Shown piece after piece: positions 381-36,344 of a stretch of DNA of 64,000 nt. This stretch comes from Bilabrum cf. latius. Taxonomy: Eukaryota. The notes beneath the pieces are model-generated. The model had not been told where the DNA came from. It saw only the letters and a list, made by a program, of their open reading frames with translations, and searched no databases. Location: assembly GCA_965178125.1 (NCBI GenBank), contig OZ237736.1, positions 434,001-498,000 of the forward strand, in the 5' to 3' direction. Position numbers and translations under genes: made by a program. Numbering within the stretch: the stretch's first letter is position 1; every line of letters begins with the position of its first letter.

Positions 381-771
381 ATGCTTAAGAAGTCAGATCA
401 AACTATCAGCGACACTAGCAGCGATAATCAACCTGCGAGGAAGAGAAATCGCGTATTTACACCAGACCGTCGGCAACAAGTTCGCGAAGCTAGCCGTCTA
501 CTTCGATAGAAGCGCAGGCAAGAGATATAGCAGCTACGGGATCGAGTTGAAGAGCTTGAAAAGGAGAATGCTGATTTGCACGCACAACTGGTGCAAGTAC
601 CCGTGTAGACTAGCTCGCTCGCAGTGGGCCAAACTGTCTTCCGTAGTGGAGTAGCAGCTCTAGAACCGCCTGTTACACAATTAAGGGAGAAATCTTAGGA
701 ACGTCCTGCTAGACATCCTATTGGAAGTGGCATACAACAGCAAGGTGCCGCCCTGCTTTCGCAATATACCG
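381..771 (+). CDS. bZIP-like transcription factor, paralogue 1, first exon (TAG read as Gln)
   Basis: ARKRNRVFTPDRRQQVREASRLLR*KRRQEI*QLRDRVEELEKENADLHAQL is a basic region plus leucine heptads. A G|GTGAG donor at 771/772 has the same phase as in paralogue 2. Downstream exons were not resolved. Confidence 0.7.
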
Positions 772-1580
772 GTGAGTGGTGAAAGAATCGTGGCAGATCG
801 AGCCACGCCAGCGCTCGCTCGCTCGAGAATTATCACAGCTCATATTGTGGCTGCAACAGACAGTCACGCTGCTACTTCGAAATTGATGTTAAATCATTTT
901 CATCGTTCACAGGTAAAGGTGTTTTGCACATGGAGTCGCCGGAAAGACCAGCAACTCGTGCGGCGAAGGGCAGATTTGCGGCGGTACTGCCTTGCAACAG
1001 ATCACGTGGATTTCACGTCGTCACAAGTGAAGACCGCGCTTCAAGTACCGTTCAAGCCCGAAAACTTAGAGGAGTATCCTGCGCGCTGGACTTTCCGGGT
1101 ATTCGAGGCGCTGCACCGCCAAGTGATTAGCTCCCAGAGTCTCAGGCGCCTAGATTGATAGCAGTGCCGATTCAACAGCCGGCACAGACGTTCATCAAAG
1201 CGCCCAACCCTTTGCTACCAACAGCACTAGCAGCTGTCGATGATTCGGTTCTGCTGAGACGACAAAACTATTTGCGACCGCCGCTGAAAGACTCGCATCT
1301 GCTGCGCGAACCAGTGCATTCAGCTGCAAATCCCAATGGAAGATTACCCGGCGAGTACACGGGGATACAAGGAGCGCCATTTGTCTCGCAGTCCAGCCAT
1401 CACTACATGCTCGGTGGATCGACTGGGCGGCCTTGGTCAGCCGCCGCCTCGAGAGATTACCCGGACCTTGGCCATCGGACAGCGGCATGGCAGAAATAGC
1501 AGCAGCAACACCAACAAGACATCGGTCGCGGTGGTGCATCACATATGCAGGCAGACGGGCAAGCAGGCAGCCTTCCCGTG

Positions 1581-1662
1581 CCTCCCACCATGGCAGCATC
1601 CGGATCATGGCCATCGTCAGAACCTCCCACCATGGCAGCATCCGGATCATGGCCATCGTCAG
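1581..1662. repeat. Tandem duplication, 40 bp identical, 42-bp period
   Basis: cctcccaccatggcagcatccggatcatggccatcgtcag occurs at 1581-1620 and 1623-1662. Confidence 0.95.
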
Positions 1663-3010
1663 GACGAGCTTTGAGAACGTCCACCGAGCAGCCGAAAAGG
1701 CAGTAGCAACAGCAGCACGGCAGTGGTGCGTGGCAGTTTAGGCTATCCCTTTTCGGGCCGAAGCAGACCAGCGTTTCCTGCGGCATAGCACCCTGCTCAG
1801 CACCGCCGCCACCCCCGCCCGATTCCTCGTCATCATCGACCACCGCAACGGTGCCAGAGGCCCGATCAGGGGCTGAGGCTGTAGCGTCAATAAAACTCAG
1901 CTAGCACACTGCTGATGAACACAAGCATGTCTCTGTCGTCACCAGCGCTTCCCAGTCCAGGTCACCCAGCAGCAGGGAGTCCAGCAGCTCGATTCAGTGG
2001 CACGCAGCTTCGGAGCGGGAGGATAGGCGTGGTTCACATTCGTCGCAAACCGCCCCCGGGACTGATAATCAAGAGGATTAGACAGCTCGGTCCTACGGAC
2101 CAGCATCTACTTTGGGTCCCGATGTTGCGCTGCTGCGACACCGCGCGAGGAGCACCCAGCAGTACGCTAGGGCACCGATAGGTCCATCGCATGGTGGTGA
2201 TACAGCCACAGCGCCGGGGCTGCCCTCAGGCTGCAGGGGGTCATCCTCTTCCTCGTCTTCGTCCTCCACCTCAGCATCGAGCATCTCGCATAGCACTGGC
2301 AGACTGTAGGGATGGGGTTGGCAGTCGAGGCACAGACACGTAGCGCCAAGCAACACACAGCAACGCCCTATGCTGCAGTAGATTGAAGCACTTGAGGTAC
2401 GGTTTGGGCTGGCACCTGCGCGCGGTCAGCCTCATCAGGGCGCTGTGCTGCAAGCTGGCGATTCCATGAGAACCGACATTACTAGTAGCTTGGCGCAGCT
2501 CACCGCAGCTGTGTCTCAGATAGAATTGCAGTAGCTACAGTAGCCATAGCAATGGTTGACGCGTTCTGCAGGGCAACTGCGAGCGGGGCACAGGCATGCA
2601 GAGGATATCTGCGCGCAACTCGAAGGCAAGGGGGAGCCCACTGGCACGGACGAGCTGCGACCGCATCATCACCCGGAGGCACATGTAGTGTAGCAGCCGC
2701 GCTTCTCGTTGAGCGGTTGGAAGCGGAAAAGGTCTAACTTTGAGGTGGGGGGGGGCGCAAATAACGGTTGAGTGAGTGGACTATTGCGGAGTTGTTGTAC
2801 TGTCACAAGCAGGCCGCCCACAGCACCACTGGCAGAGCCACCCGCACCGGCGCACGAGCTGCAGCGTGGCATTGCACAGCAAGGATCCGCGGCTCATAAT
2901 AAACAGGCGTCAGGGTTTGTTGAAACTGCAAACAGAAGCAGCGTCAAGTTAATACTGGCTTGAACATTGCTAGCGCTGCCAGTGGTGCGCATTCGAGTGG
3001 ATCGGCGGCG

Positions 3011-3274
3011 ATGGCGGCTGAATCAGATGGCGGCAATTGTGATGCCGACGGGAAGAGTCCCTCCAAACGAGCACGCGTAGAAGCCGTCGAGAGCAAAGGA
3101 CAAGGCAGCAGCACCCCCATGAAGGGAGCGTCCGGCGATAGCCACTGGCAGGCAAGCGAGACTGACGACAAGGGAACCGCGGAGCAAATCGCAGCTCTGC
3201 GCCAGGAGAACGAAAGATGGCGCGCGGTGGCAAAGCAGCTGTCAGCTCGGCTAGGGATCAAGTTGCCGTCTTGA
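3011..3274 (+). CDS. Small hypothetical protein with a C-terminal coiled coil
   Basis: ATG to TGA; ends EQIAALRQENERWRAVAKQLSARLG. The 3' part is duplicated at the start of the window. Confidence 0.4.
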   Translation: MAAESDGGNCDADGKSPSKRARVEAVESKGQGSSTPMKGASGDSHWQASETDDKGTAEQIAALRQENERWRAVAKQLSARLGIKLPS

Positions 3275-4448
3275 GTGTTGTCTTGCAATCTGTATTTGAG
3301 TGCAACGTGATCGAAGCATGGATGGTATACATTGGTCAGCCAATCGAAGCTGCAGTTGGACCTTGCAACTACTAACATGGACAAACATTATTTTGTGGGT
3401 TTGCACGGAATAGGATCCAGGTTCGCTGGCCCATGCGATGCTGGTTGCTTTGTGCCTAGTTCTGGATAAATTCGGAGCCAACTTGGAGTTAACGCCGATG
3501 CGACGCGTGGCCCCATTGCGAAGCCCCACTGCTCACTGCATCGACTACTGCCAAGCAAGAACTGCTGCAGAAACGCAAATCGTTCCTACCGGAGCCCGGC
3601 CGGTGCCATGCTCACCTAGGATGCCCTGCTCGACGTTAAGCGCGCTCTCTCAGCACGCGATGTCGATGCGTCAGCAGACTCCATCTTCGACGCGAGGTTC
3701 TACTCTAGCAAGAAATGGCGAGCGCCGCCCCTCAGCGCCCGAGCCGCTCAAGTCTAATTGTGACCTCTCAACTTCCTCGTCCGCATGCGGTCGGGTGATC
3801 CGATCCCTGATCCGATCCCTGATCCGGGGAACTCGCACACGCCCCACCTCAACCTGCCCGGTCTGTGTCTCCCTCTTCCCATTCACCGTGCCGACCAGAT
3901 AGCCCCACCAATCATCTCCTCCACTAATCCTCCACCCACTGGAGTACCATCACCCTCCCTACTCCTCACTCGTCCTTCTCGCCCACCCCTACTTGCCACC
4001 ACTCCTGCTCGTACCTCGCCGGACTGGTCTCCTCGACCGCTCACTCCTCCGCTTTATTGCGTTGCATTTAATCCTGCACCTTGAACGGGTACTGCGCCCA
4101 ACACAGGACCTCAACCTCAGAATCCCATTGGCTTCACCAACCATCTGATCTACACTTAGCCGGCCACACTTTGTGCACACATCCGTGAAGCACGCACAGA
4201 TGCATGCTTGCTGCACCTTAATAACACTGCTAAGAATATAAACGGGAGCCTAAGAGGACTTGTACTTCCCTGGGGCGACTGGGGCGAGCTTTGTCGCATT
4301 CCGTCTGCATGTTGGTTCTGGGTTCTGGTCTAGTCGGCGTGGGTGTGACAACCCGAGCCGATGGCGATAATGCCGATCTGATGCCTGAAGGCAACACTGC
4401 TCGAGGACTTCTAGTCTTTGTAAGGAACATAACAAGTTCAGTATTGAA

Positions 4449-6589
4449 ATGCCCGGTAAAAACAGTCCAGTCCATCCCAAGGATAGTAACGACGGTCCTC
4501 CTCCGAAGAAAAGGAAGCGCGTGATTACTCCAGATCGGCGGAGGCAAGTCAAGGAGGCAAGTCGTCGCCTGAGACAGAAGCGAAGATAGGAGCTTGAACA
4601 TCTGCAAGAACGTGTACAATTTCTAGAAGACGAGAACCGCAACTTGCGATCCCGCTTAGCGCAAATGGCGCAGCGAACAGGCCAGCTCCCAGGCGGGGCT
4701 GCTCAACAGTTTGGTTCAGAACCGGCTGCTACACTCCCGGGAGGCAACGAATCTGCGAAAAAGAGCGCGCACTAGAATGCATTTGCATAGGTTCCACCTA
4801 CAGGCGGTGAGTTTGGACGAATGTCCCATCTACAAGCCTGACGCCCGATGGATGTGGAGCGCCAGATGGATGTGGAGTTCTCACACTCCACATCCATCGG
4901 AGCAGCATGCAATAAGCTAGACGAATTCGGTGCCTCGCAGCTGCCCTTCACACTTCTCCTTACTTTCTAACAGCAGATCAAGATGCTACGTACCCAGAAT
5001 CCGGGAGAAGCTCAGCGCCTGATGCGGTCAGCATCAGTTCGCCAGTCGAACCTGTGGCAGCGATTGCACCGGAGCTCATGCCCAAAGACACAAACAGTGA
5101 CGCAGTCGAAACCCACGCATCTGCGGCATCATATTATTATGGTGGATTTCACGGGACAAGCGACTTTCGATAGACAAGATTGGCTGAATAGGCTGGCCTT
5201 GCACCACTGTCAGCAAGCATCAGCGATTCCTCCCGATCGATAGGAGCAGAGACCCGCCAGCCAACAAGAGCACAGTCTCTAGTGCCAGAATTTTCTGAAT
5301 CGCACAGGCCATTGCAAGCACTGCAGCATTTGGGGGTAGATGCCTCGCAGCAGCTTGTGCCGCCAGAGCTGCCAGATTCCGGGACGCCCCGGCCGTACCG
5401 AGGCCTCGACGGAGCGGGGGTGGGCGCCGGCGGTCCTGTTACTTCTTCCTCCTATGGCGCGAGTCACTGGCATCACATGCATGGTAGAGGCTCCATGCGA
5501 ACGGTTCCCAAGGCTGCCCCAGGCCAGCCCCCAGGCATGCAATGGCACCAGCAAGGAGATGGCATGCATGACAGCATGGCGGTTTCCAAGGCAGGTCTTC
5601 AGGCAGGCGGGCACTTCAGTGCAAGAACGTCGTCGGACGCATTGTCCTTCGCTTCGTCAAGCACCGCACTTGCTCCCATTGCTTCCCTGCAAAGGGGTCG
5701 GGAGCAGGACCCGCATCGCGCGTGGCAGTCGAGGCTCTCCCTCTTTGGCTCTCGTACTCGCCACACTACCAACCCGACACGCTCGCGTCCACCAACCGGA
5801 TCCGAAAGCCACTCGGCCGTCGTCGGGGGGACACAGAAAGTCAGCACGGACGATTCCATGACCAGGCAGTCGCCGATGAGCCGCGACTCGAGGTCGTGGA
5901 ACTCGGAGCGGCAGCTTGGATCAAGGCAGGAGCCGAGGCCGGTTGTGTTCACCCGAGGCTAGGACCCTCCGCTGGTGCAGTACCGATCTGGCGCAGGACC
6001 GATTCCCCGGGGCTTGGTGGTGCTGGACGGTGGACCCTCCGCTGATCCCCGACTCCCGGGTCTGGGGGGTCATGCGCAATTCGGCGGGCTGCAGCCCTTA
6101 CACCAGACCCACCGCGGAGTACCAACGATGTCTGCATCGTTGCAGGCGAGCTAGCAGTCGCTGCATGAGGGGTCCATTCGACAGCAAGGAAACGATCATG
6201 ATGCCACAGGCACAGGCACAGGCACAGGCACTGGCACTGGCACTCGTGGATCGCAGGTGATATCGTCTGCTGCGAGCTTGAGGGACTTGCGGGGTCACCA
6301 CGGGTTGGTGTACGGAAAGAATAGTGGTTTTCCCGTCGACCACGGCCACAGCACTGCCACTGGCACTGCAATCCAACAGCAATTCGGCGGCCAGCAGCAG
6401 CAGCACAGTCGGATTGGGTATGTTGGGCAGATGCAAGCGGGAGCCGGCGATGCGGCAAGGCTAGGCATACAGTAGTTGCAACCGTACCAAGCACCGGCAC
6501 CGGCAGCCGGTGCCTTGCAACGGCAATTTTCACTGCTTGGCAGGAAGCGGAAGAGGAGGGAATCATCCGGTTCGGAAGCCGGGGTCTAA
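4449..6589 (+). CDS. bZIP-like transcription factor, paralogue 2 (predicted intron 4807-4973; TAG=Gln)
   Basis: KKRKRVITPDRRRQVKEASRRLRQKRR*ELEHLQERVQFLEDENRNLRSRL. A GTGAG...ctaacag intron joins in frame to ORFs 5282-5962 and 6257-6475, which are broken only by TAG. Ends at TAA 6587. Confidence 0.7.
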
Positions 6590-7184
6590 ACGGATATGAC
6601 TCGTTTTTGCCAGTATGGACAGCTGTAAACTTGCTATCCTGCTGGTGGTGACAATACAGGCAAACAAAAGCGTTTTGCATCTTTACGCTGCGTTCTGCGC
6701 AGCATCTTTCGCGTTCGCCGAAAATTGAAAATTGATTCAGCAGCCAAGACAAGGACAGCATCAATACGCTGCGTAGATTTCACTGGAAATCTGAGCTTCT
6801 ACCGACTTGAGATAATATGGGTACTTCTTTATCGTTCAAGATAGCGGAGATAATCTCAGCGAAGCCTTCCTTGGCTTCGAATCCGGCCAATCATCTCATC
6901 GGCCGACAATTTTAGCCGGTTGAAAAGTCACAATCTGCTTCCGATCATTGCAATGAGTACCCTAGCAGGAGTCTCTGAATGTACGAACAAGTGGTGGAAT
7001 GGATAGGATACCAAACTGAATTGTTAGTTCCGTAATAGCATGTGTTGCGGTGCGCGGCGCCTCGGACTGGCCGACAGCTGCCAGTTCTCGTTTTTCCAGA
7101 ATTGATTTGACGAGGTTGTCCTAAGCTTAGCAACCTTCAAGTTTCGGGCAGGTCTTCTTTGAAAACTTCATTTTAAGAGATCAT

Positions 7185-7785
7185 ATGCCGGAGTAGCAGG
7201 ACCAAGACAAGACAGAACGGCGACGTGCATAGGTTCGTGTGAGCGTAGTATTGCCCCAGCCACTGCCCAAAATCCTGTCCTAATCGCTTGAAATATGGGC
7301 GGTATTGGACGATAATGAACATATCTCTCTTAAACGGGGTCGATACGATGGTCTCTGCCCCTACTTTGGCCGATTTTATACCAATCCTTCTTGCATCGCA
7401 GACCGCGTCTCGACGATTTAGAGAACGCAGGAGGCAGGAACTGGACGGACTAAGGACAATCGTTCAGGAGCTCAAGGATTAGAACGAGCATCTAAGGACG
7501 CAGCTACAGACGAGGGGGTCTGCTGGCCTGTAGGGGCTTGCTTCTCAGCCAGCCGTCAGCGGCACCGCAGCTGCCCACCCCGGGCCTGTGGCGAAGCTCC
7601 CCGTACCAAAACCTATCGTACTAGACGCATCGGGAATCGTATTACCCCCTAGAGCGGGCTTAAGTGCCGTTGGCCAGTGTGAGTCTTCTGAAGTAGGATG
7701 TGGTGAATCGCACGAATTTTGTGGATTAGAGGCAGACGTCGGACAATCAGTTCCGGCTCTTCAGTGCTCCAAATGCGTAGTCTGA
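7185..7785 (+). CDS. bZIP-like transcription factor, paralogue 3 (predicted intron 7239-7401; 3' end uncertain)
   Basis: Spliced product: DKTERRRA*VR|TASRRFRERRRQELDGLRTIVQELKD*NEHLRTQL. Intron boundaries are GTGAG...GCAG. Confidence 0.6.
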
Positions 7786-8561
7786 GTCGCTGCACTTGAA
7801 GTGTTGATCATAACTACAACGTAGGCAGCATTGCTTGCAAGTACCTGAGCATCCAGTGCCATTTTGATTGCATTATACTCGCAGCGCACCAGCTCGGCGG
7901 TAGCGGCCAAGCCAACCAGAACCCCGGCGGTGTCGCAGCGCCGGAGCCTCCAAGCGCAGGAATTGCATACCGCACCAATTTCCAATCTCAACGTGGATTC
8001 GGGCATGCAGATGAATACTCACAGGCTGCTTACTAGCCCGGAGGCCCTGCTGTGCCCCAAGGAGCTTGGCAAGCTGGACCTATCCAATTGCAGCATCCCA
8101 GCCGCGCTGCTTAGGCTCGTCTGGACACTTTGTCGTAGCTTGCCAGTGCTCGGCAAGCTTAGTCGCTACAGTATCCGCATGGTTCATCATTGTTCGCATT
8201 CGGAGCAGAGCAAAGGGGCGCATCATTCCCGGTAGCCCGGCACGGAAGCCAGCCGTACGGTGGCTACGTCCAGCCATAGCTGCAGCAACTGCAGACCTCA
8301 ATTATTCGACCAGCGCAGCCGTTTGGACAAGGTATGCTCCAGTGGAGAAGCGAAAATGCAATGCTGCAATAGTAGCAGCAGCATGAAGCCGTGCATTCTC
8401 TCCATCCCGGCCGGCCAGCTGCGGTAGCCGGGGCCGTTTCCAACTTTCAAATTCCAATGCGAGGAAGTGGTACGCTTGAAACGGTCAGGTCGCAGGTTTC
8501 TACTGGATCGCAAAGAAATTAGAGCCTCACAGCGAAGGAGGGCACCGGATTGCGGCTTCTC

Positions 8562-11500
8562 ATGCAGCACTTGCCGCCTCATCTCCACAGCTCTAGTTCC
8601 ATTGGCACCGGATCAGCAGGGCGGCAGAAGCCCGCAATGGGCGGCGAATTCCGTCTTTCTGCCGAGCATCAGACTCTGAAAAATTCGCATACGCTGCCAG
8701 GTGCTTGCCTGCCCGAAGCAAGTGCCGGGCGCGCCGCCTCGATGACCCACCTTGAAGCGTCGTCGCAGCCGGTGGCGGGGACGGCATCGTCTGTTCCACA
8801 GCAAAGTGCTGCTCTGGCTAGCGCAACATTCAGCGCAGCTAGTGTTGGGTCCCCGGGGACGCTGAGACAAGGACAAGGCCGACATTTGGCCGAGTCTGTC
8901 GTACCCGACAAAAGCGGCGGGCTGTCTCTACTGCAAGCGGTGGCGACCCGAACGCATGAGCCCCCGGTAGCCCCAGACAACTCAAGCAACAACGAAGCGA
9001 GATCCTCCATGCAGTCTCAGCCGCCCAGTGCCGCAGCCAAACTCCAAGAAGTGGGGCCATCGAGCATGCTGGGCAACGGCGACGGCGAAGGGGGCTCTGC
9101 TGCTGGCAGCACCAGCATGGAGGAAATGGGGGGACGCACGCTTGGTTCTATCGCGGCCGGATCCATCGGTGTAGATTCGTTGGGACCTCATGGTGGTGCA
9201 GGGGACGATTCAAGCTCGGCAGGACAGAGCCTGATGATGCTGCTGTCCAGCAGGATGCACCCGTCCTCCTCGTCGTCTGCCTGCTCCCAGGTGCAAGGGG
9301 GGGCATCCACTGGGTCCGTGCCGCCCCCCGCCGCACCCCACTCGTTCGACAGCCTGAATCTCATTGGTTCGATCTCAGGGACCGAAAAGCTTGGACGGGG
9401 CCATCCAGCCATGGCTGGCAGCGAGCTGGAAATCTCCTCCCAGCCTTCGCTCGGGGCCAGCAGTGGGCGGCCGTTCTCCTTCCAGGCAATGCGCGGCGCC
9501 AGTTCCGCCAACAACCCCATGCCACCTGGATCTGGAGCATCCATGGGGAGCTCGCTAGGCATGCCGCCCGGTCAGGCCATGATGGACGGCGCGGGTCCTG
9601 GCAGTGAGCCTTCTGAAGCCCCACGGACTGCTGTAGCTGGAATGAGTGGCAGCAGTCTTGGCGGGGCTGATGGGCTTAGCGCCCGAATCGCAGTCACGGC
9701 CAGCAGTGTCCGCGGAAGCGGGTCACGGGAGGGCGGCAGCCGCGCCACCTCACGCGATGGTAGTACGACTGCATCTGCGCTGGTCGAGCAGCACAGTGCT
9801 GGCAACATGAAGAAGTCCGGCGCTGGTGATCGGAGGCAAGTGGGCAGCAAGGCCAAGCGAGGTCAGTCATCCCACCACGGACAACAAACGGTTGGGGCGG
9901 ATGAGGCTCTAGTCGGAGGTCCCAGTGACGAAGGTGCTCCTGCAGCGAAGCGCAACAGGGTCGAGTCGAGCCGCTGGACGAGAGACAAGCAGGCAACCGT
10001 GCCCACAATGGTGGGGGAATCTTCAACCAACGTCAGCGACAGGCACGTTACACGCCGAAGCAGGAGCGGTGGCTCGGCTGGCAAAGAGCGGCGGCACGCG
10101 TCCAGTTCAGGCAAGTGGTCCCAGATGGACGGCAATCGCCATTGGGACGACGGCAGGTCCTCCCAGCATTCCTCAAGCGTGGCTTCGGGCCGAAGCATGC
10201 CATCGCTGCCATGGTTTGACCCTAAGATCAGAGCCGGACGCAGCAAGGTGGGTGGCCCTGTGACCACCGCAGATCCCGCTGCTGCTTTGCCCTCTGGTCA
10301 GGTATCTGCGGGTGGCCTTGCAGGTGCCACTTCAACGGAGGAGGGCCAGCAGGTGCTCGACATGGTCGCACACGTGATTCGTGGAGGATTCATGCGGCTC
10401 ATGCACCTGCTACCGCTCCCTGGATGGACCAAGCGCGGAGACTCGGCGGATGGTGGCGAATGGTACTGCAGGGAGCTTCACAGCGAGTGGGCTGATCTGG
10501 GGGGAGCAGCAGCAGCCAGAGGGGCCCTCCCCGGATGGAGCAGCGGAGGCGCGCACCCGCATGCCGGTCCAAAGCAAGGAGGACATTCTACCGGCGGTGC
10601 ATCCTCAGGCAGCAACGGAGCTGCGGGCGCGAGAGGCAGCAAGGGCACCGGTTCTGGGAGCGTGTACGCTCTGGCGAGTGGACGCGGGACATCGTCAGCA
10701 TCAAGAAGCTAGCAGGGCTCCCACGGCGGGGATGGTGGCAGTAGCCGTGGGCATACTGGCAGCGGCGGAAACGGCAACAGCGGCAGTGGCACCGGGAGTC
10801 GCGGCATGGGGGTAGGAAGCGATCCTTCGGCCGGCACGCAACAGGCCGACAAATCCACCGGTGGATCCATTGGATCGGGGCAGAGCACCAGCGGCGGCCA
10901 TCTTCGAGCCGCAGTGGGTGCCGGAGGCACTACGACAGGGAACAGTGGCAGCGGCTCGGGGAGCGCCGGTGGCTCTGGGTCCAACTCAGGGAACAATTCA
11001 GGGAACAATTCGGGGACGGGTACAGGGGTGGAGGGTGGCAGCGAGGGTGACGGACAGGAGATCATGGCCGACGATGGTGCGCTGGCAGATGAGGGGACGA
11101 CCACGAATCCGGCCCAATCACCAAGCGAGGGACTGCACACCAGCTCTGGCCAAGAGTCAAGTGGCCCTTCCCCTATGTCCTCCACTGATGTGGCCCGCGC
11201 CGGGGCTCATCCGGACGCGTGGGGCGAGGCGAGGGGCAGCGCCCAGACTGACGGCTCCAAGCCCTTGTCTGGGTCTGAGTCCAGCACTGGCAACCCTGCT
11301 GCTACCGGTCCGAATGCCACCAAGCAAGCAGCTGCAGCTGCTGCGCAAAATAGCATTTCTTCTGGCTAGAGTCGGGACGGTGACGCTGATAGGCCAGACA
11401 CGGCCTCGCCTGCAGGGCAGTCCCTCCCCTTGTCTGGCACGGCCGGTTCGATTCGTCGCAGCGGCGGCGACAACTCATCTGAAGGCAGAAGCAGCAGCGG

Positions 11501-13991: not shown

Positions 13992-14333
13992 GTGTGACGA
14001 GGGCATGCACTTGCAGGGCGTGCTGGTGATTGAGTGCAGAGGGTCAGGGAGGGTGAAGACCTGAGGTGTCACGAGGTGGGTGGAGCGAAGCAAGGTTTGC
14101 AGGTTTGCGCAAGCTATACGGCGGTGCTCTTCTTAATGCAAGGAGCCCCGTGTCTATTTCAAAAAGCTACTTCTAATTTACATTACCGAAAGTTAGAAGT
14201 ACTGTCTACCTTCACGCGGCGCTCAATACTGTTGCAACTTGCTGTTGCTGCTCAGGTAAGGCGTACTTTCAGGAATCTGGTTTCATTCCTCAGCACGATT
14301 GGAAGCGCACCAACAGTTTCAAGTTTCTATCGA

Positions 14334-17024: not shown

Positions 17025-17193
17025 GGCTGTCGAGCTCCTCCGAGGGTGGTCGCTTCGGGTGCGATTGGGAATCCAATTTGGGATTCTTGTCTTCTTCTTG
17101 AACTATATTTGCACCCTTACGGCAGTACTTCCATATGATCACATGCATACTTTTCAAATTATACCCGGGAACGTGCGGGTATCGGATTTTGGA

Positions 17194-22260: not shown

Positions 22261-22402
22261 CCATGTGCTGGTATAGAGGGCTGTGTCTATTATCCTCATT
22301 GCCAGTGGGGGGGGAACCGGGCCATCATTCGGCCCCACTTGGTCATCGAGATGATGGATTATTCTTTCTCCTTCTCATTCACCGTTGTCAACTTAATGCA
22401 TA

Positions 22403-25400: not shown

Positions 25401-25873
25401 TCCGAGGTGGGGGTGCGGGGTAGGGCAAGAAAGCCCGCGTTTGGCTCCACATGGAAGGTGTGGAGCCCTTGCAGGTGCCTTGGAGACTGGTACCGGTGGT
25501 GCAGCAGCTGATCTCGTCTGGAGCGGGCGAATCACAGTCGCTAGCAAATGTTGCGACGAGCGTGGACCTGTTCGGAGACAGACGTCACCAAACAGAGTCG
25601 CGATCAAGGTCTGTTGATGAGGCCGTGAAGTCAGGCAACACAGGCCCGCAAGGTGGTTCTGCTCATGCTGAGACAGCTCGCGAGCGGATGGAGGCGCTCG
25701 GGCGGGATGCAGTCATTGGAATCCAGCCAACCAAGCCGGTGCCGCAGGGAACCCGCGGCAAGGTTAAGAAAGTCTTGGTTGGAATCGCGAGGAAGATGCT
25801 GCTGGCAGGCGTACTTCGAGTGTCGGGACAGAGCAGTGCTGACGACGAGCAGCTGGGCGGGTGGGATGATTGA
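22403..25873 (+). CDS. JmjC/cupin 2-oxoglutarate oxygenase (ROX/NO66-like), possible signal peptide (TAG=Gln)
   Basis: VNVYVSPP...LHHD..VMIIQTSGRKEW and LEPGDVLYLPRGTPH lie in ORFs joined in frame across TAGs, including a TAG-TAG at 22928. Ends TGA. Confidence 0.85.
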
Positions 25874-26657
25874 TCCGAGATCCGAACTGAATACTATCAC
25901 TGAAACAGCTGGATCTTGAGAGTACCGCCTTGGCAAATGCAAATGGTCAGTCCCGTGGATGTTGAATACTGCCTCGCGATGCTGGTCGCTCAAGCAGGTC
26001 CGCAGCTGCGACCACCTTGACCTGGGGACATGGAACCTCGCCGGTGCGTTGCGATCATATGCCTTCTACTTGCTGGTTTAGCAATTCCAAGACGGACCAT
26101 GCCAACCTTTGACCCATGCGAGGATTGCTTCTTCGCAATGTCTCGAGCGGACGAAGCAGCTGGAACCAAGCGCGCAAGCGCGGGGAGGCAATTGTAATAT
26201 GCTGATACATCTCTTTGGGCCCAAGCAAAGATCTGCAAAGATTGGGTCTGGGCATGAACGTACGAGGGACAAAGTTCCGACTCTATCTGCGCCAGAATCA
26301 TACCATGACCTGGCGTGTGGGCTCGACTGTAAGCCTCCGATGTGTCTGTGGTGTATTGCTATGATATCTGGCGAAATTGAATGCGCAAACATGGACAAAA
26401 TAGGCCAAAGTTTCATCAATCATGGTGGTGGCGCAATGCTGGCCAAGGGTCTGGCTGTATAGGCCAAAGTTTTGTCCGCACACCATCTACGGCAGGTGCA
26501 GTGCACTATAGCCCTTGAGCTGACGTATCGAGAAGTCGGTCACAGAAGACCGCGTTTGAGATATACTCTGGGTTTCTGATTTCGCCCAGAACGTTTAACT
26601 TTAGCAGTATATTTCCTAGTATCAGTATTGTAGCCAGACACTTCCGTTTCTGTACTC

Positions 26658-29600
26658 ATGCCTCGACGACGCACTTCCTCGAGTGGTTCTTCCGGAGCAC
26701 CAGGGCAGCCTGGAAGGACGAGTCCCTCTCAAGGAGCCACTGCAACAAACATGCGCGAAGTGTTTGCTGAGGTAGTCAGGCGTCGTGCATCCCATTTCGC
26801 GCAGGGTGCAGGCGCCAGTACCCTGGCTGTGGCTGGACGGCGTGCAGCTGGTGGAGCTAGGGCAGCTCAATCTAATGGAAATGAGGAGGATAGTGACTAG
26901 GATTCGCTTTCCAGCGGTACAGAAGATGAACGTTTGCGTCACCGTAGGAGCGGCGCATCTCGAAATTGGCCCGGACCATTCGCTACGGGCCTTGCTATCT
27001 TGAGAGCTAGACGGAGGGCATTGCGCCGGCGCGCAAAAGCGATTCGCTAGAGGAGATCAGATCAAGCGTCTGGGGAATCTGCTGCCCAGCGTCGGCGCGT
27101 GAGTAGTCATGGACCAGGAGGACCAGGAGGATCTGGAGACAGTTCTGGCTCGGAGTCATCAGATGCCTACGATTCCGACTCGAATGCAGCGGTTGACCCA
27201 GACGATGAGGCATCATTCGTACCAATACCAATGTGGAGTCCAGGGGATAGTACTGGTGGCTCGAAAGACGGAGCAGTAGACGGATCGTCAGCTCGATCGC
27301 CGAAGCGCGCACCTGCTCTTGCTCCGCTCGCCCCAGGCCAAAGCGCCGTGCCATCCCTGGTGGATCTATGCATTCGATTTGTGGGTTCTTTCTTTGAACA
27401 TGTGGAAGAGCTCGGACCCCTTCCCAATACCCTCCGCCGCTCGATTGCTCGCTCACTCGCCCTTGGTCGCAAGCTGGACGGACGCTCTGTCCGTCTGCTG
27501 TGTGACGAGCCATGCGACGAGGTGGTGATTCCCGATGGAGCGGCTGTGGCAGAGCACCAGCTCGTGTCTCTATTTCGGGGTCATGGGGATGATGCAGGGG
27601 ACGTGATAGGCGGCATGTAGGGCGGGGTGCCCCTTGTTGGATCTGGAGCGGGATCGTCGCAGGCTTCGTCAAACTCATCTGCGGCTGCGGCCCGGCCAAA
27701 AGGACCCGCCAGGGCGGTAGAGGGCCTGGATTCAGCCACATCCGTCGCAGATGCCGTCCTTGTAGACTCCCTGCCTGATGGCACTGCATTGCGGTGCGTG
27801 TCGCTACACAACTGCGGGAGGGCGCTGACGGACAGGGCCGCGCGACAGGTTGCAAATTCTGTTCCCTGGCAGTCGGGAACCCTAAAGCAGCTTCATGTGG
27901 GTGGTGCGTACCAACTGACAGACGCTGGGATGCTGGCACTCCTGCGTTCAGCTTCCAACCCCACAGGAGCCAATGATGTGCTTGGCAGTAACGGCGTGCC
28001 TGGCCTCGGGGACTTCGACTCGGAGTTGGAGATTGCTGAAGCGAAGGGTTCCGACAAGACATCATCGTCTTCATCGTCGGCTGCAGCAGCATCGGCTGTT
28101 CTCGCCTCTGCACCTATGGATACCCCTTCAGGCACGGATGCTGTTGCTGCTGCGGCTCCTGGCATCGACACGCTTTCCCTATCATGTTGCTCGCTACTCC
28201 GGGGACCAGTGGCTGCACATATCAACGAGATCTGTCCTTCGCTGCGGGCGCTCTCAATTGATGCTTGTGCTGGCCTGGCAGATGACGAGCTCGCTGGCTC
28301 GTGCGACGAAAGCAATGCTGGCAGGATTGATCTTGCTTCTCTGTCGGCCATGACAGACGTAAGGACTGACTCGGATGCCGTGGCGGGAATGAGCAAGCAC
28401 GTGGTTCGCGCGCGAGCACACGAGAACCAGCAAGGAAAGGGGGTCAGTGATGGTCAGCTGCCGCCATCGCTGCGACGTCTGCCGCGCTATGCCGGGGTGC
28501 TCCGTGTCGCACACCAGCTCCGGCACTTGTCACTAACAAGGCTTGCGGCAGTGACAGATGCTGTGCTGGTACCCCTCCTGTCTCGCATCAGGCGCGCAGG
28601 ACAGCTGCGCTCACTCGTCATCAGGGACGTGCCCAGGTGCGGAGACGCGTCCATCCTGGCTCTGTGCTTGGGAATCTCCTCTGAGCCGTCAGGCGATTCG
28701 CACGGTGGCAACGACAGCTCAACAGAACCATCGTAGCAAACCAGCAAAAGCGGGAAACAAAAGGCCAAGGCAAAAATAAAAAGCAAGAAGAGCTCATCAG
28801 CATCGGCATCGGCATCGGCATCGGCAGTCATGAGAGATGACGATACTATGGCAGGTAGCCCGTCAGACCTCCCGCCATTACCCCTTCAACTCCTTGAGCT
28901 GAGCGCGTTGCCTCGCTTGTCTGGTGACGCGCTTCGAGCAGTGGCTGCAAGTAACATCTTGTCGAGGGTCAGGCACCTGAACTTATCCCGGCTCAACGCA
29001 ATCCCAATAGGAGAGGAAGGCCCGCTCGTCGCCTGCATTTGCTCCTGCGGCCACTACGGTGCTATAGCGGCTCCAGAAGAAATGCCTCAGCAACTGCCTG
29101 GCCTGCCACCGAGGCGCTCTGACATGGCAAAGCCGCTTCCACCGCACAAGCTGCTGCTTGACCCGCCGGCAATTTGGTCCCCTGATATCATGGTACCGAT
29201 TGGCGCCGGCACACTTGCAGCTGAGGCGGTCCAGTCCGCGGACGAGCAGCTCGCGGATGTGGCTGACCGTGTAGCTAGGAACAGGCAGGCACCCGACTCC
29301 CAGCTTGGATTTCGTGCTGGGTGCGGGTTGGTGTCAGCTCGGTTCGCGGGTCTCAGGTGCATGACCGACCGATCGATGGCCGCACTAGCTCTGACTAGTC
29401 CGTTGACGCTCCGCTCAATCGACGTGTCGTGGTGCAGGCAAGTGACCGACGCTGGAATCGGCTACTTGGCGCAGTGCTGCGGCCATCGATTGCTGCCATC
29501 CTAGGCGGCTGGGAAAGGTAATTCGGCTACCGTGGGAGGGAAGAGGGACAGGGATGATCTGGTCTCCGAGGCAACTACCGCTTTCCAGTTTGACGACCTC

Positions 29601-29744
29601 GCGACGTCGGAGGGCCTCCGGGAGATTGCATGCTGGGGGCAATCGCACGTATCAAAGGAACTAGCGTCTGCATTCACCCGGGGGAACGGGGCGCAGCTAG
29701 AAATCCGAGGCATGCCAGGTGCGAGAGTGCCGTTGGTGGAGTGA
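26658..29744 (+). CDS. RAD7: Rad7/Rhp7-like leucine-rich-repeat DNA repair protein (TAG=Gln)
   Basis: WPGPFAT motif, VPSLVDLCI..VEELGPLP..IARSL..RKLD, GAYQLTD, and cysteine-type LRRs such as IDVSWCRQVTDAG. Five same-frame ORFs are split by TAG; ends TGA. Confidence 0.8.
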
Positions 29745-29873
29745 TGAAGCGTTGATTAATGATGGAAATTGGAGTTCTTGAGTGTTGCCAGCGGGTTTGT
29801 TGGACCCAGTTCAAAGTTTTTCTGGACACTTTTTTGGCAATTTCTATCATTCATGCAATTATGCAATTTAGGA

Positions 29874-32800
29874 TCACCCCATCAATGCTGCAAGGGCCGG
29901 TGACGAATGCCTTCGCGCTGTTCCTCGACGAATGGATGAGCTCTCACCGGTACTAGGGCTTGCCCTGCTCGGCGCTCCTACCGGCGGCGATCCTGACGGC
30001 TTCTCCTGCGACTTATCTGCACCACGACTCCCAGGAGTATCTGCCAGCTATGCTGGGGATGCAGCGTCTCGGCAGCTCACTTGGCGGCTTGTGCCGTTAT
30101 CGTCAACCGAGGAATCAGACACTGTGCTGTTGGTGCCTTCTCGCAGCCTCCTCGCACCTGCTGCTCGAGGTAACGCTGCAGAACTTGCAGATGTAGCATG
30201 CACCCGGCGCTAGTTTGAAAGCCCTTGGTCAAGCGAACGTTGGGCTGGTGAAGACTGGCGCTGGCCTGCAACCGCTGAAGCACCTGCTCTCCTGCGCGCC
30301 TCCTTGGCCCGTGCTCGCTCCACCTCTCTCTCTTTGGCACGACCCGCGATGGCCTGTGCCACCACTCTGGCATTCTGCTTCACCGTGCTGTTCCAGTGGT
30401 GCTGCAGTGCAGGCCCCTGGAAGGCTGACAGCACCAGTGCCGTGAAGGTCGAGTCGCCCAGGATGAGAGGCACAAGCGGGGAGGGCTCTCCGGTGTGGGG
30501 CTGGGGGTGGCACAGGGCAGCGGCAGCTGTGGCTAGCTGTGCGTGCGGGCTCTGGATGCACACGCACAGCCTGCGGATCAGCCGTTCTCTCAGCGGGCCC
30601 ACCTCGGGCACCTAGGACCCCTCTTGCTCGTCCATGCATGAAGGCGGGCCTTCCGCATCATCCCGGCCATCTCGCGGTGAAAGTGGGCCAACACCGGCTA
30701 CACTGCCTGCGCCTGCCTTTTCAAGGGCCCGTCTCGCTGCCCCTCCTGCCCTCGCCAGCATGCGAGCGTGTCTCCTCGCGTCCTTGGACCCGCCCCTCTT
30801 GCCCATGCTGCCCTGGGACTGCCCCTCGTGGCTGAAGGCCCACGAGTTGAGCGTGGTGGCGAGGAACCTAAGCAGCAGGATCTGCCTCGTGGATGCGTTC
30901 CGGGGCCACCGCAGCAGCACAGTGCCGGCTAGGTACCTCGCAGCCCCCGCATCAGCCGCAGCCGCGGCTGTGGCACACCGCAAGACAGACGAGTACTCCC
31001 CGCACACGACTGGACCGAGCCGGACCAGGCAGTGAGCCACCGCGACAACCAGCCGCCCCGGCCCTACTGCTGCAAAGTGTCGACTAGAGAAGGCACCCGA
31101 AGACAGTGATGATGGGTGTCGGTTCCCCTTTGAAGGCGTGTTGGAAGGAGTTGCAGCCTCTCGCGCAGGTGCGGCGGATACTCCCATCGCTGATTTCAGC
31201 GAAGCATCGGCTGCTGCCGTCCTGCCATTGCCAGCGTCGGGGCCCCCAGCGGTATCCCCAGTCTGATGCAGTTCTTGTCGCAGCCCTACTGCCAACATGG
31301 CCCGCGCGTCTGCGTCTGCATCTGAGTTGGAACGCTACCTGGTGGCAGGCAGCGGGTGTGGGGACGACGATGAGACGTTCGGATCGCTTGCTTCTCTCTG
31401 TCCCCGACCTTCGTGCCCTGCGTAGGAATGCACTGACGAACTAGCCGAGGTTCCGGCGGAATGGTCACCGATACGACTGGGCCTCAGCTGACTTGTCTCG
31501 CCTGAAATCACTCTGCGCAAGGGGTGCGCCACTCGGACGCTGTCATTCCCGTCCCTGCTGGCTAGCCGCGCAGAAAAAGCGCTTCCCTTTTCAAGCACGA
31601 TAGGAGAGTGGATTGCTTCACCGAGCGTACGGGCCGGTAATGGGATGGGTGATACGCCGCTTCCCAGCTCCCTAGGCAGCCCAGCGGTCTCTGAGAGTCC
31701 CGGCCGATAGCTCGCGATCGCTTGCCCGCAGAAGGCCAGCAGTTCCCGCATGGAACCGACCTGCACATCGCTCGCTGGCTTGATCACGACCCCCGTGTCT
31801 GAATCCAAGATGCCCAGGCCGGAGGCAAGGGAGACGGACCCGCGGTGCACTCGCCGCATGATTCTACCGCGCCTCACCACCCTGGAGGCAACTGCAGTGC
31901 TGCCACCTGTCGCAACTGATCCAGCTTCATCCTTAGTAGAGCCGGAGCTAGCCCCAGGCGTACTCTAGTGCCAGGGCGCGGGCGACTGGGAACGTCCCGC
32001 TTCGGAAGGAACACCGCCAGCAGTAGAGCCGCCTTGGGAATCATCCTCACTGGCAGTCATGTCTCCAGATGAAGTCCGTGCGACTCCAAGACCACCGGAC
32101 GCACTGACAACAACAGCCTCGTCTTCTTCGTCGCTATCAGAGTCAGCTAGAGACAGCATGGAGTCCGGGCCTGTTCTCAGCAGCGATTCGGGCAGCTTTG
32201 ATTCGTTCGCCATCGCGTATTGCACCGCAAGCGAGGTCACCCTGACACGCTTGGTGATCGCCGCTGCCACCTCGCACACCACGCGAGAGCGCCACATCGC
32301 GAGAAACCTGTCCAGGTGCCTTCGAGCCACATCCTGAGCACCCTGTCTCTGCTCCTCCGCTTCCTCCCTGTCGTCATCGTCACTGCCCTCTGCATCGCTC
32401 TCGTCTTCTCCCTCCCAACCGTACCCGCCCGAGCTGCCACCGTCATCCGTATCTCCACATGATCGCCCAAGCGAGCCAGTGAACGAACCAGACGATGCGT
32501 ACCTCCTACTAGCAGGATTTGAACTGCTGGTGCCCGCACCAGCCAGCGGCCCGAACGAAGTCGGAAGCTTTGTCACTTCATCGCCACCGGTATCCTCGTC
32601 CAGGCTGCTCTCACGTGACGCGTGGGTGTGTGATGGCGAGCTCAGCGCGAGGCCGGGGCTTGTAGAACTGGTGTGGTCCTTGGAGGTGTCCGCCGGCTGC
32701 CTAGGCGGTGACAGTGGCAGCCCAGTAGGAAGACTCGGCTAACCTACAAGGCTTCCAGAGTGCTTCTTGGCAACTAGGCCGACGGAGCTGTTGCCAGTGG

Positions 32801-35800
32801 GCGTGGCAGGGGGTGTTCGGGCTCTGGGCTGGGCAGCAGTTGCCAGGTCAAGGGCGCTTGGTGCCAGCTGCAAGTCGAGACCTGTGGAAGCGTGCGCCAT
32901 TCCAGACAGCGCCGACATGCTGGGGCTCCTGGGAGGTGGGGACGTGGAAGGCCGCAAAAGGCCACGCAGCGCCCTCGGTGACTTGGCTACATCCGAGGTA
33001 GTTACTGCTGCAGTTGTTTTTGAGGACATGGCAGTTTGTGATGCCCCAGTGCTGTCTTGGGCTTTGTCTTGGCGTAAAATAACGCCTTTACCCGATCCGT
33101 CCTATTCCCAATCGTCCGCAGACAGACCAACCAGCTCTCCAGACATGTCGTTGATACCTTCGTCCAGACAACCACTGCCGTGCTCGCTACTCTACCCCTA
33201 TGCTGCACTGCTGTGACTTGTTTGCCCTTGCTGATCGCTTGCATCCTACCCGGGCAAGCCAGGCCATTCGGGTGCGGCTGCCTCTTGGCCGGCAGGCCGA
33301 TCTGCCGTCAAATCCTCCATAAGGTGTTGCTCCGGCAAACCTTGCTCCCTGGCCTTTTCAAGCTCAGCCAAAGAGGTATGAGACCCACGCTGGCCCGTCC
33401 CAGATCTCACGGATATCAGACCGCGGTAATTGCGCCCCTGGCCACTGACAGCGCCGGACGATTCAAGGTGCGGTGGAAGAAACCCAGAGGCAACGCTCAT
33501 GCCATCAGCGGCGATGCTTGCAGTGGCTGGGCGGCCCACGCTTCTTCCGCCCGGCGCCACCGACTCGGTCTTCTTCGCCCTCAGCCTCCGCTTCCTCCAG
33601 GTTGACCAGCCCCGCAGATCGCGCGGGCGGGGATTGTACAAGCTGTGCAGCAGCTGCAGCAGAAACGTGCGCTCGGTAGCCTTGGCCGACACCTGGAGCT
33701 GGGTCACAGCGCCGGTCAAAACTGGTGAGCTCAGCAGCCAGGGGCCTCCAAACTTGGAGAGAGCCAGGAGCAGATCGTACAGCACGCTGCTGTCGTGCTC
33801 GGAATCCAGGCCTGACATGGCACATCTCGGCCTTCCTTCTCGAGTGGTCTGGGGCTACCGCGCCCTGGAAGATTTCGCATTCGGCTGGTCTTCCCCAGCG
33901 TGCGAACCAAGGGCTTCGGCTGGTGTCCCAGCTGAGCTGCTTCTAGCCCTGACACCAGCATGTCGGAACGAGTCCCCAGTGGCCTAACTCAGAGATGGAG
34001 CGGACGGTGACGGCCGAATCCCGTTGTTCAAACCCGAGCCTCCATCCTGGGACTCGGTGCCACTGCTCTCTTCGTTCGAGTCCACCTAGCCAAATGCGAG
34101 AAGCCTGCCTTGCGCCGGAGGGAGCGCATCGGCCACGTCCTGGTCCACGACCCCTCGCTTTCCTCTACGCCGCAGCCCGGAAGAACCCCCGTCGCTCTCG
34201 CTGCCACTGCCTTCGTCCTCGCTGCTGCTCACGATGTCGTTCACGCCGACCTGCCGGTACCGAAGTCCAAGCACGCCAGACCCACCGCCGATGTCCTGCG
34301 GCCCCGCCTCATCGTCACCTGCCAGTGCACCGTATCGCGAACCACTAGCCTTGTTGAGCAGGCTGATCAGCACGTACTCCTGGGCCTCATCGGTGGTGAG
34401 CAGTCGGCGACCGCTGCCGAGTCGCTCTGACCTCGGCAGCCTGATCCCCCCGTACCTTTTCCACTGCCCCGATGTCAGCATGGTGTGCACGCTGTCGGGA
34501 CCAATGCGCTTGTCGGAGATTGCAGGAGAGCCTTTGCCTGCACTGAGCTCGTTCAGGTCCTCGTCAGCCTCAGCCAGCTGCTGCAAGCGGAGGCGGTCCA
34601 GCTGTGCCTGCATCTGCTTGCGTCGCATGCGCGGGAAGAACGCGCTTTCGGCGTCATGCGAGTTCTATCCGGATCCAGCAGGCGGACTGTTCATCATCGC
34701 AAATCCTGCGAGAGTCACAGACGTGGATTGACGCTCCCCAGGAGTCACGGGAGGCGGAGAAGGCGGCGCTTCGTCGTCTTCCAACTCGTCGTCTGGTGAC
34801 GCCAGCAGCTCGTGAGAACCGCCAGATGGCGGCGCGCTGTCTGGTTCTGTTGACGGCTGCCACTACCTTTCAGCATCGTCTCCGAGCAGACGCGACCGAA
34901 GTTGATCGGCGCGCTTAGCGACGAGTGTCCGTCTCAATTTAAGGGCATGCCACGACGTCCATGGGTCGACCAGGCGAAGCGCGTGCCTATCCTGTGGGGC
35001 AAGCAACCCGGCGTGCGCGGCCGATAAAAGTACCGCAGTGCGATGGCTTCGACGTACGTCAACGTCCTCGCTACTGCTGCTGCCATCGGTGCGCTGCAAG
35101 CCGCGACCGATCCCGGCATAACCATCGCAGGCGCCTTCGCAGGCAGCCATGGCGGCAGGCCCCAGTGTTTCTATCCTATCGCCGACCCGTGCCGGAGATG
35201 GAGCGTCCACTCCTAAAGTTTGCAGCACAGACCTGGCTCTAGGGGCCCCGACGGCCCACCGCAGCAGCCTGAACACCGAGTTGGGCTGGAGGAAGAAGGG
35301 GGCCAGCTGCGGGCTAGGAGGCTCCCTGGCTTCTGCCACTCGCTGAATCGCTGCTAGAAACGACCTGGAGGACGACTATCGAGACGCATGCCCCCTCGAG
35401 CGCCCGGGGCTCTAGGGTTCGGGCGATGACGTTCTGGGCGAGACGAGCTCCATGCCACGAACTCCAGCATTCACTGTACCCGCAACGCTCCCCGCCGCAG
35501 ACTCAGCCTCCCAAGCGGCAGCAAGATCTCCAAAGGAATCGTCCGCGCGGAGAAAACTAGCCATGCGAGACCGCCGTTTCTCCCCTCCACCCGTTGCAAA
35601 CTCCTCCCCCACTGTCTTTTGCACGTTCTCCTGCTCCATGCGGGCGAATCGCCTGGCAGCAGCTGCGGCTGCATGCCTCCTTCGCCAGGATGGCGCTAGC
35701 CCGAAGCACGCATCAACCACTCCTCGAACAACGACCAGGGGAGTATCATTCCGCGTCAGCACTGCTGCTAGCAGAGCCACAGTGTATGCCACTAGTGCGG

Positions 35801-36344
35801 GTGGGGGCAGATTCTGCCTATCCTCTTGCACGGAGAACGGGTCCGCGCGCAGGCCGGGTCGCCCTGCCCTGCTCCGAGGCGGGCTGCGGTACGTCAGCTG
35901 TGCCGTAGACGCAGGCTAGCCCCACCTGCTGCTCGCCTCGAGACGGTTTCCACTCGCAGTGCCAGTCGAAGCAGACGGTGCGGCAGGCAGGGCGAGCTGT
36001 GCCAGGTATGACGCCTCGCCGAACGCGCATGCAAAACGATGCAAGAATCGCCATGATGGATGTGCTCCAGCGTCGCCTGCCTCAAACAGGGCGTACGCGG
36101 CCCGCGTGCTCCCTCTGTGCGCATGCATTCCATCGGGTCGCCTGGCACCGACTGCAGCAGACGGGTGGTAGCTGCCACTCGAGCCTCGAGAAAGGTGCCT
36201 GCCTCTGGCCTGTGGAGAACGCGGCTGGTACTGGGACTGCGTTCGGACTTCTTGCGCTGCAAGACACCCCCTAACGCTATTCTACCATTTATCACGCACG
36301 ACTGGAGGCGCGCTGCCGGAGTCACTCGCGCCCGAGGCCGGCAT
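29874..36344 (-). CDS. ~2150-aa divergent PP2A B56(B')-like regulatory subunit with long low-complexity insertions (TAG=Gln)
   Basis: Ten ORF-track ORFs share one frame and all end in TAG. B56-like blocks: LYDLLL, ERTFLLQLLHSLY, LLRWPRNASTRQILLL, LCVCIQSPHAQLA, HHWNSTVK. Ends TGA 29874. Confidence 0.65.

Follow-up and report, generated by a model that had tools for sequence, protein, structure and literature searches.

We analyzed a stretch of 64,000 nucleotides (positions 434,001–498,000 of contig OZ237736.1, assembly GCA_965178125.1; here called the window), in which the stop codon TAG stands repeatedly inside the reading frames of genes. The results indicated that the window is very probably nuclear DNA of an intron-containing protist rich in guanine and cytosine (GC), in which UAG is an ordinary codon, most likely for glutamine (Gln, Q), UAA and UGA terminate translation, and an integrated virophage-like element shares the code; a tRNA-Gln with the anticodon CUA and an altered release factor eRF1 would provide the mechanism. 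In composition the window falls into a GC-rich host part (positions 1–36,500 and 62,000–64,000; 54–66% GC) and an AT-rich part (36,600–62,000; about 30% GC), which holds the element (36853–61281).

To compare the three stop codons, each was released in turn in positions 1–36400, and the open reading frames (ORFs) of at least 400 amino acids were summed. The standard code gave three such ORFs with a total of 1,958 amino acids, whereas reading TAG as sense gave 15 ORFs with a total of 13,297 amino acids, the longest of 2,174. Release of TAA yielded three ORFs and 2,051 amino acids, a near-zero gain over the standard code, and release of TGA nine ORFs and 5,724 amino acids. The AT-rich element behaved in the same way: no ORF of this size was present under the standard code or with TAA or TGA as sense, and four appeared with TAG as sense (2,685 amino acids in total, up to 942 each).

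Eight long ORFs in the GC-rich part contain 4–19 in-frame TAG codons each and end seven times at TGA and once, at 4916–6589, at TAA. Counted from stop to stop, the numbers of TAG codons are 11 (783–2771), 5 (4916–6589), 14 (7800–13991), 6 (14034–17024, cactin), 12 (17194–21270, reverse strand), 4 (22397–25873, a JmjC protein), 6 (26580–29744), and 19 (29874–36533, reverse strand, a B56-like protein). The preliminary description of this DNA had thus placed the terminators correctly, at TGA in the host ORFs and at TAA in the second of three bZIP paralogues, but its figure of 4–10 same-frame pieces per gene is too low for the B56-like ORF. Since the ORFs were defined by being free of TAA and TGA, the in-frame absence of these two codons is partly built in; Pfam domains are found downstream of in-frame TAGs in the host frames. 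The 40 TAG codons in 14034–34033 were compared with contigs from four other sequencing runs (at least three other studies), which include 27, 21, 7, and 4 of them and show zero differences; the host TAGs are therefore not assembly errors.

TAA is not a sense codon. Neither the host nor the viral ORFs contain TAA in frame, and this includes the ORFs covered by homology; TAA is the principal viral stop, terminating 14 of the 18 viral ORFs as well as bZIP paralogue 2. TGA terminates the other four viral ORFs and seven of the eight long host ORFs, among them cactin, where it coincides with the end of the CactinC profile. The viral primase-helicase (residues 12–893 of 932) and nearly the whole viral integrase are covered by homology in single frames. 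If TAA encoded Gln, one would expect many more TAA than TAG codons, because CAA outnumbers CAG by 137 to 11 in the viral ORFs; yet TAA is the usual viral terminator. Taken together, the proposal that TAG is sense and that TAA and TGA are kept as stops, in host genes and in the integrated virus alike, is strongly supported. As a practical consequence, gene callers using the standard code will fragment nearly every gene of this organism.

The identity of the amino acid was addressed with the viral proteins, which have many homologues and supplied the most decisive evidence. The 18 ORFs of the element contain 79 TAG, 137 CAA, and 11 CAG codons, so that TAG, if it encodes Gln, makes up about one-third (35%) of the viral Gln codons. 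For the primase-helicase, the alignment was restricted to 18 distant homologues and excluded two close relatives as well as the copy of the protein in the database; three TAG columns carried Q in 16, 17, and 8 of the 18 sequences, and two residues written as TAG in the element, Q355 and Q580, were invariant in a 12-sequence alignment. At these three sites, a tblastn comparison with 80 IMG/VR loci gave Q in 67 of 78, 80 of 80, and 28 of 80 cells. In the integrase, aligned with 149 cluster representatives in which Q accounts for 4.8% of residues overall, three TAG columns showed Q in 122 of 148, 82 of 149, and 95 of 138 sequences; at the remaining nine TAG sites the columns are variable or gapped, and Q is not in the majority. 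When 25 TAG sites were pooled (708 non-gap cells), 28.7% of the cells opposite TAG were Q, as compared with 12.2% opposite the element's own CAA and CAG codons and no more than 4.8% opposite each of the other residues. The empirical log-likelihood from the same alignments was –1891.8 for Q, –2048.3 for K, –2078.8 for R, and –2148.7 for E. Thus, the reading of TAG as Gln, which the preliminary description had put forward for the host genome, is strongly supported in the viral genes by these alignments.

Among the 80 related IMG/VR loci, recoding was seen in none, and only one stop codon occurred among all aligned cells. The recoding is thus specific to this element, its relatives using the standard code.

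In the host, TAG could be a sense codon for an amino acid other than Gln, such as Glu, Leu, Lys, or Tyr. Codes with UAG read as Leu, Glu, or Ser exist (PMC5304391; PMC11687900), and within the host part TAG stands opposite E or D in five of 11 bZIP comparisons and matches TTG (Leu) once in a diverged homologue of the B56-like gene; the best correlate of host TAG density is Tyr (rho 0.40, p 0.015 uncorrected). However, the element is necessarily translated by the same ribosomes, and there the log-likelihood of Q exceeds that of K, R, and E by 156 to 257 units. Leu occupies 46 and Tyr 10 of the 708 cells opposite TAG, Leu lying outside the six best log-likelihoods, and columns in which Q is invariant (80/80; Q355 and Q580) carry TAG. 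The TAG/TTG difference is paralleled by a change of CAG to CTG in the same B56-like comparison. We therefore regard a different amino acid as highly unlikely.

In the host genes themselves the meaning of TAG was less sharply defined. The bZIP paralogues have the peptides RxKRRQE (nucleotide 504), RQKRRxE (nucleotide 4572), and RRAxVR (nucleotide 7221), along with RRQQVR and RRRQVK, at the places previously described (x denotes TAG). The reciprocal swap between TAG and a Gln codon is thus present, but among the 11 pairwise comparisons, including this swap, the residue opposite TAG is Q in five, E in four, D in one, and R in one. In the JmjC gene, the TAG sites lie in variable columns; a pair of TAGs aligns with the 'IQ' of MINA53, where conservation is weak. 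A CAA- or CAG-encoded Gln lies within two residues of 23 of 84 host TAGs (27%); the corresponding figures are 23% for Gln itself and 21% for Leu, so that this comparison is supportive without being discriminating.

Several points weigh against the interpretation of UAG as a Gln codon read by a dedicated tRNA. The host-only columns fit Q or E and do not separate them, so that the support they lend to Gln is moderate; the TAG sites of cactin lie in unconserved, variable columns, and in the one case in which a TAG meets a diverged homologue, in the B56-like comparison, that homologue has TTG (Leu). Across 36 segments of 250 codons in the host ORFs, TAG density and Gln content are hardly correlated (Spearman 0.11). 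The homologue rows in the integrase and IMG/VR alignments are related to each other, so their counts are not independent, although the direction is unambiguous; moreover, the Q at TAG positions in the database copies of two window proteins (P0009 and P0030) is an assumption of the gene caller and no evidence. ARAGORN found no tRNA gene, and Rfam at gathering thresholds no family, in the window, a stretch of just 64 kb being much too short for a missing tRNA gene to tell anything. Finally, no sequencing run containing this sequence is recorded as RNA.

For the host the argument for Gln runs through the virus. An element which lies in this genome with perfect inverted repeats and a target-site duplication writes 35% of its Gln codons as TAG, and we infer from this that the host machinery reads UAG as Gln; the host genes by themselves need UAG to be read as something.

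Since UAA is kept as a stop, the decoding tRNA would have to carry the anticodon CUA, pairing at the third codon position with G and not with A. By analogy with Iotanema spirale, for which a tRNA-Gln(CUA) and an altered eRF1 were predicted (PMC5304391), such a tRNA would pair with UAG and leave UAA alone, acting alongside an eRF1 in which recognition of UAG is lost or weakened. It is also conceivable that Gln is inserted without a dedicated tRNA, a near-cognate tRNA-Gln(CUG) reading UAG once eRF1 no longer recognises it. The lack of an ARAGORN hit would fit this, missing cognate tRNAs have been noted for other recoded protists (PMC5304391), and readthrough by tRNA-Gln has been described (PMC13192750). 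On the other hand, 19 TAGs in a single host ORF and a TAG share of one-third among the viral Gln codons call for efficient decoding, and the size of the window keeps the missing tRNA from counting. Near-cognate reading hence seems highly improbable to us.

Another way to keep the standard code would be to correct the TAGs in RNA, through either U-to-C editing, which turns TAG into CAG, or their excision as micro-introns. Such editing would likewise produce Gln at exactly these sites, and no run is recorded as RNA. In the host and viral alignments, however, TAG occupies a single aligned residue with no extra letters on either side, and about 160 sites would have to be edited, 79 of them in an element that is foreign and recently integrated and has perfect terminal inverted repeats. 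A weak hint in the same direction comes from one sequencing run (X6), the contigs of which start and end near gene borders, break between convergent genes, and keep 21 TAGs; the depth differences and contig ends of this run are RNA-like, but the run was rated as probably DNA. We consider RNA correction to be extremely improbable. That the genes are pseudogenes, or the TAGs sequencing or assembly errors, is practically negligible as an explanation, having nothing in its favor beyond the stop codons seen under the standard code, as in-frame stops are confined to one of the three stop codons, frameshifts are absent, open frames extend to as many as 2,174 codons, contigs from other studies contain the identical sequence, and changes relative to the diverged homologue of the B56-like gene are mostly synonymous (21 to 15).

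In NCBI translation table 15, TAG encodes Gln. Phages using code 15 are known (PMC9523058); formally the table is the same, but the window consists of a eukaryotic nuclear genome and a eukaryotic virus. The closest parallel among nuclear genomes is the fornicate Iotanema spirale, in which UAG encodes Gln and UAA and UGA are stops (PMC5304391). There, too, UAG alone has moved to Gln with UAA kept, the same mechanism is predicted, and a T32G change in eRF1 is reported (PMC5304391). The two differ in lineage, as the window cactin groups with Cafeteria, a stramenopile, and in that the window is GC-rich with TGA as the main host stop, whereas the primary stop of Iotanema is UAA and the evidence is transcriptomic (PMC5304391).

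UAG encodes Gln without UAA in the ciliate Protocruzia tuzeti and in two phyllopharyngean lineages as well, with several independent origins (PMC11687900). The window is similar in that UAG but not UAA is reassigned. It differs in the high GC content of the host part, the long low-complexity proteins, the 24-kb integrated virophage, and the position of its cactin next to Cafeteria; it does not look ciliate, and a ciliate origin is unlikely, though the cactin tree contains no ciliate cactin. In the code in which both UAA and UAG are read as Gln (the table 6 type), TAG likewise encodes Gln and integrated viruses follow the variant code of the host, as described for the endogenous viruses of Streblomastix strix (PMC10120064). 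The window departs from this type because TAA is not sense, ending 14 of the 18 viral ORFs and never standing within them.

The contrast with the table 6 type was illustrated by a metagenome contig (L136, positions 1–1704; 53% GC) that encodes a cactin with seven TAG and three TAA codons in frame and a TGA end, the TAGs standing where other cactins have Q. Judging from its sequence, this contig represents a different organism with the TAA/TAG=Gln code, and it serves as a positive control, the TAA part of which is missing from the window. The rhizarian exLh code, in which UAG encodes Leu (PMC5304391), resembles the window in the reassignment of UAG alone, but Leu is a poor fit to the cells opposite TAG. 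Overall, changes that separate UAG from UAA are described as rare, being listed for one rhizarian, Iotanema, Scotinosphaera, and a few ciliate lineages (PMC5304391, PMC11687900).

The preliminary description had suspected a non-ciliate, bicosoecid-like flagellate as the host. In a tree of 63 cactin rows and 611 columns, the window sequence grouped with Cafeteria roenbergensis and the database sequence P0182 with a Shimodaira-Hasegawa-like approximate likelihood-ratio (SH-aLRT) support of 96, and in a second tree of 37 rows and 388 columns (at least 90% filled) with a support of 97, in which the composition warning for these rows fell away. Both trees represent a single gene in which the window branch is long (1.24–1.36), and they sample no alveolates. 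The suggestion can thus be upheld in a tentative form, the host being possibly a relative of the bicosoecid Cafeteria. Cafeteria is annotated with the standard nuclear code, and its genome paper mentions only UGA=Trp in the mitochondria (10.1101/751586).

A first search with cactin was swamped by low-complexity words and returned eight matches only. In a search with the C-terminal part, the top named matches were stramenopiles (Cafeteria, Tribonema, and diatoms), two animal-labelled records (sturgeon and mosquito) aside, with scores barely above those of animals. The top match, a sturgeon record flagged as contamination (P0180), was rejected as a false lead, its score resulting from a duplicated C-terminal domain with 60% identity. 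A metagenome scan with the cactin alignment gave 80 loci and no close relative of the host, the best identities in the C-domain being about 60–66%.

For 14034–34033, identical sequence was present in runs (X1–X8) from several studies, labelled as four different coded organisms; runs X1–X4 contain the window completely. The source may accordingly be a co-cultured or contaminating flagellate and not the labelled species.

The element at 36853–61281 is 24,429 bp long, and its 18 ORFs use TAG as sense. It is flanked by a 5-bp target-site duplication, AATCT, which can be read directly at 36848–36852 and 61282–61286, and it has terminal inverted repeats of 1,507 nucleotides with 100% complementarity (36935–38441 and 59693–61199). 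These two features identify it as a true insertion, and it is recently integrated. The outermost 101 nucleotides at each end (36853–36953 and 61181–61281) lie outside the perfect inverted repeats and form an imperfect palindrome, the two copies of which are in direct orientation and 100% identical; to judge by this arrangement, the termini look like the flip/flop type. Each terminal inverted repeat also contains five tandem copies of a 28-nucleotide repeat (38221–38360 and 59783–59922).

Five of the viral ORFs were given functional names. The rve integrase with a C-terminal chromodomain (40710–42365, forward strand) has 12 in-frame TAGs and a TAA stop; its Pfam matches were rve (1e-07; 32.5 bits, 0.1 under the cut-off of 32.6) and Chromo (6.8e-07). 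The primase-helicase with an N-terminal Prim-Pol domain (56349–59147, reverse strand; Pfam Prim-Pol 3e-13) comprises 932 codons, 11 of them TAG, and ends at TAA; the nearest primase-helicases outside the element's own group are 31–33% identical to it, whereas the primase-helicases P0010 and P0011 reach 83–86%. The putative virophage-type major capsid protein (52354–54240, forward strand) has six in-frame TAGs and a TGA stop, and its match to Pfam MCP_V20_C (3.5e-06) lies exactly at the curated cut-off; a pattern scan of IMG/VR and a tblastn search of a phage collection gave no match for it. On the forward strand there are also a packaging ATPase candidate at 49299–50456 (TAA stop; seven TAGs in the stop-to-stop ORF, six of them after the first ATG) with weak matches to AAA_10 and AAA_22 under the cut-offs, and a candidate cysteine protease at 50359–51024 (three TAGs) with a weak Peptidase_C57 match (E 0.0063), also under the cut-off.

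Two further features of the element were noted. A TAG stands one to four codons ahead of the true stop in the integrase (42354–42365, ...DRxR followed by TAA) and in the capsid protein (54226–54240, ...RKxLNM followed by TGA); these TAGs may once have been stops, translation now continuing to the next TAA or TGA. In nearly all intergenic regions of the element we observed, on both strands, a conserved unit of about 60–100 nucleotides, made up of the core GCGCCCAGAATTGCGG, an AT-rich spacer, and then CCGCAATTTGGGGC (12 and 8 copies), at 37126–38425, 42372–42512, 43826–43966, 45396–45536, 48496–48714, 51077–51347, 54268–54367, 54833–54932, 55776–55875, and 59694–60978. By analogy with the promoter motifs of the endogenous mavirus-like elements (EMALEs), the unit is a candidate for a shared promoter or terminator signal.

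The EMALEs of Cafeteria burkhardae are low-GC virophages in a high-GC host (PMC8547959). The element resembles them in its terminal inverted repeats, short target-site duplication, rve integrase, and primase/helicase, in the order of the capsid genes, the minor one directly preceding the major one, and in the repeated intergenic motif (PMC8547959). It differs in using TAG as a Gln codon and in that no family B polymerase was seen in it; its capsid protein is without a match in the collections scanned, and its primase-helicase is distant from those outside its own group.

In the host part, the preliminary description had named three bZIP paralogues, cactin, and a JmjC oxygenase, all of which were borne out by Pfam. 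bZIP paralogue 1 (192–2771, forward strand; bZIP_2 2.1e-07) has its bZIP exon in an ORF at 192–779, with four TAGs and then TGA, followed by the ORF 783–2771 in the same frame, which ends at TGA. Paralogue 2 (4389–6589, forward strand; bZIP_2 4.9e-07) consists of a bZIP ORF at 4389–4838 and the TAA-terminated ORF 4916–6589 in a different frame. Both share the motif FSLLGRKRKR near the C-terminus, with TGA in paralogue 1 and TAA in paralogue 2 a few residues after it. Paralogue 3 (7180–13991, forward strand; bZIP_2 1.7e-05) has a first basic-region exon up to 7238, a bZIP ORF at 7243–7785, and then the ORF 7800–13991, which ends at TGA. It contains a GT..AG intron of 163 nucleotides (7239–7401), the removal of which restores the basic region that is uninterrupted in paralogues 1 and 2, so that the host is a eukaryote with spliceosomal introns. 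A TAG codon lies inside the paralogue 3 exon, six nucleotides upstream of the donor site of this intron.

Readthrough of the TGA that splits the two same-frame ORFs of bZIP paralogue 1 was considered and dropped. An intron is the simpler reading at this place, because paralogue 2 shifts frame at the matching position and paralogue 3 has a GT..AG intron. Positions 1–390 and 2947–3400, upstream of paralogues 1 and 2, respectively, are duplicates of each other with 93–95% identity in a translated comparison; since the flanks are duplicated too, the tandem paralogues would have arisen by segmental duplication that included them.

Cactin (14334–17024, forward strand) comprises 896 codons and ends at TGA. 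Its CactinC (1.1e-50) and Cactin_mid (4e-22) domains lie in a single ORF with three TAGs between them. CactinC stands downstream of all six TAGs, and its match covers profile positions 2–125 of 125, ending at the last residue before TGA. The ORF at 17194–21270 on the reverse strand ends at TGA and gave no family in a Pfam search. The JmjC/cupin oxygenase of the MINA53/NO66 type (22397–25873, forward strand; TGA stop) matched Pfam JmjC_2 (1.3e-15) and MINA53 in the PDB (4.8e-11). The gene called Rad7-like (26580–29744, forward strand; TGA stop) encodes a leucine-rich-repeat protein, for which a single weak match, to LRR_6 (E 0.011), was obtained, and the assignment of another gene as START-like found no support in Pfam.

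The very long ORF on the reverse strand at 29874–36533 (2,219 codons, TGA stop) has a weakly B56-like C-terminal region; the name given to it earlier corresponds to a sub-threshold match (E 0.0035). Its comparison with a diverged homologous contig from two of the other runs listed 36 codon differences, 21 of them synonymous and 15 non-synonymous, and on this basis the frame is under purifying selection and translated. In runs X6 and X8 we observed a 5.8-kb contig of much higher depth, which matches just the conserved blocks of the B56-like gene (30276–33755) with about 4% differences, the linkers being replaced. This contig is either a paralogue or an orthologue that belongs to a related organism present in these samples.

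The code table itself is already known. What looks new is the lineage, together with a virophage that uses TAG as a major Gln codon. The reassignment had been called perhaps unreported; our search of the literature found no nuclear UAG reassignment in a stramenopile or bicosoecid, a result that, with incomplete coverage, is no proof of absence. Whether this is the first nuclear stop-codon reassignment in a stramenopile, that is, an independent UAG=Gln change in a relative of Cafeteria which has already captured a virophage lineage, we put forward tentatively, with slightly more doubt than confidence.

If this is true, the genes of a virophage in which TAG accounts for a third of the Gln codons could not be expressed by a host with the standard code, and any giant virus that this virophage parasitises would be under the same constraint. 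The system would then offer a natural test of whether a changed code keeps viruses out, and of the way in which viruses get past such a barrier. A further independent case would provide a new pair of eRF1 and tRNA-Gln(CUA) with which to ask how the ribosome tells UAG from UAA, and would test whether a high GC content, under which TAA and TAG stops are rare, eases the capture of a stop codon. The virophage would show how viruses track the code of the host, none of the 80 related viral loci being recoded, and the host would offer all of this in a GC-rich, genomically accessible flagellate lineage.

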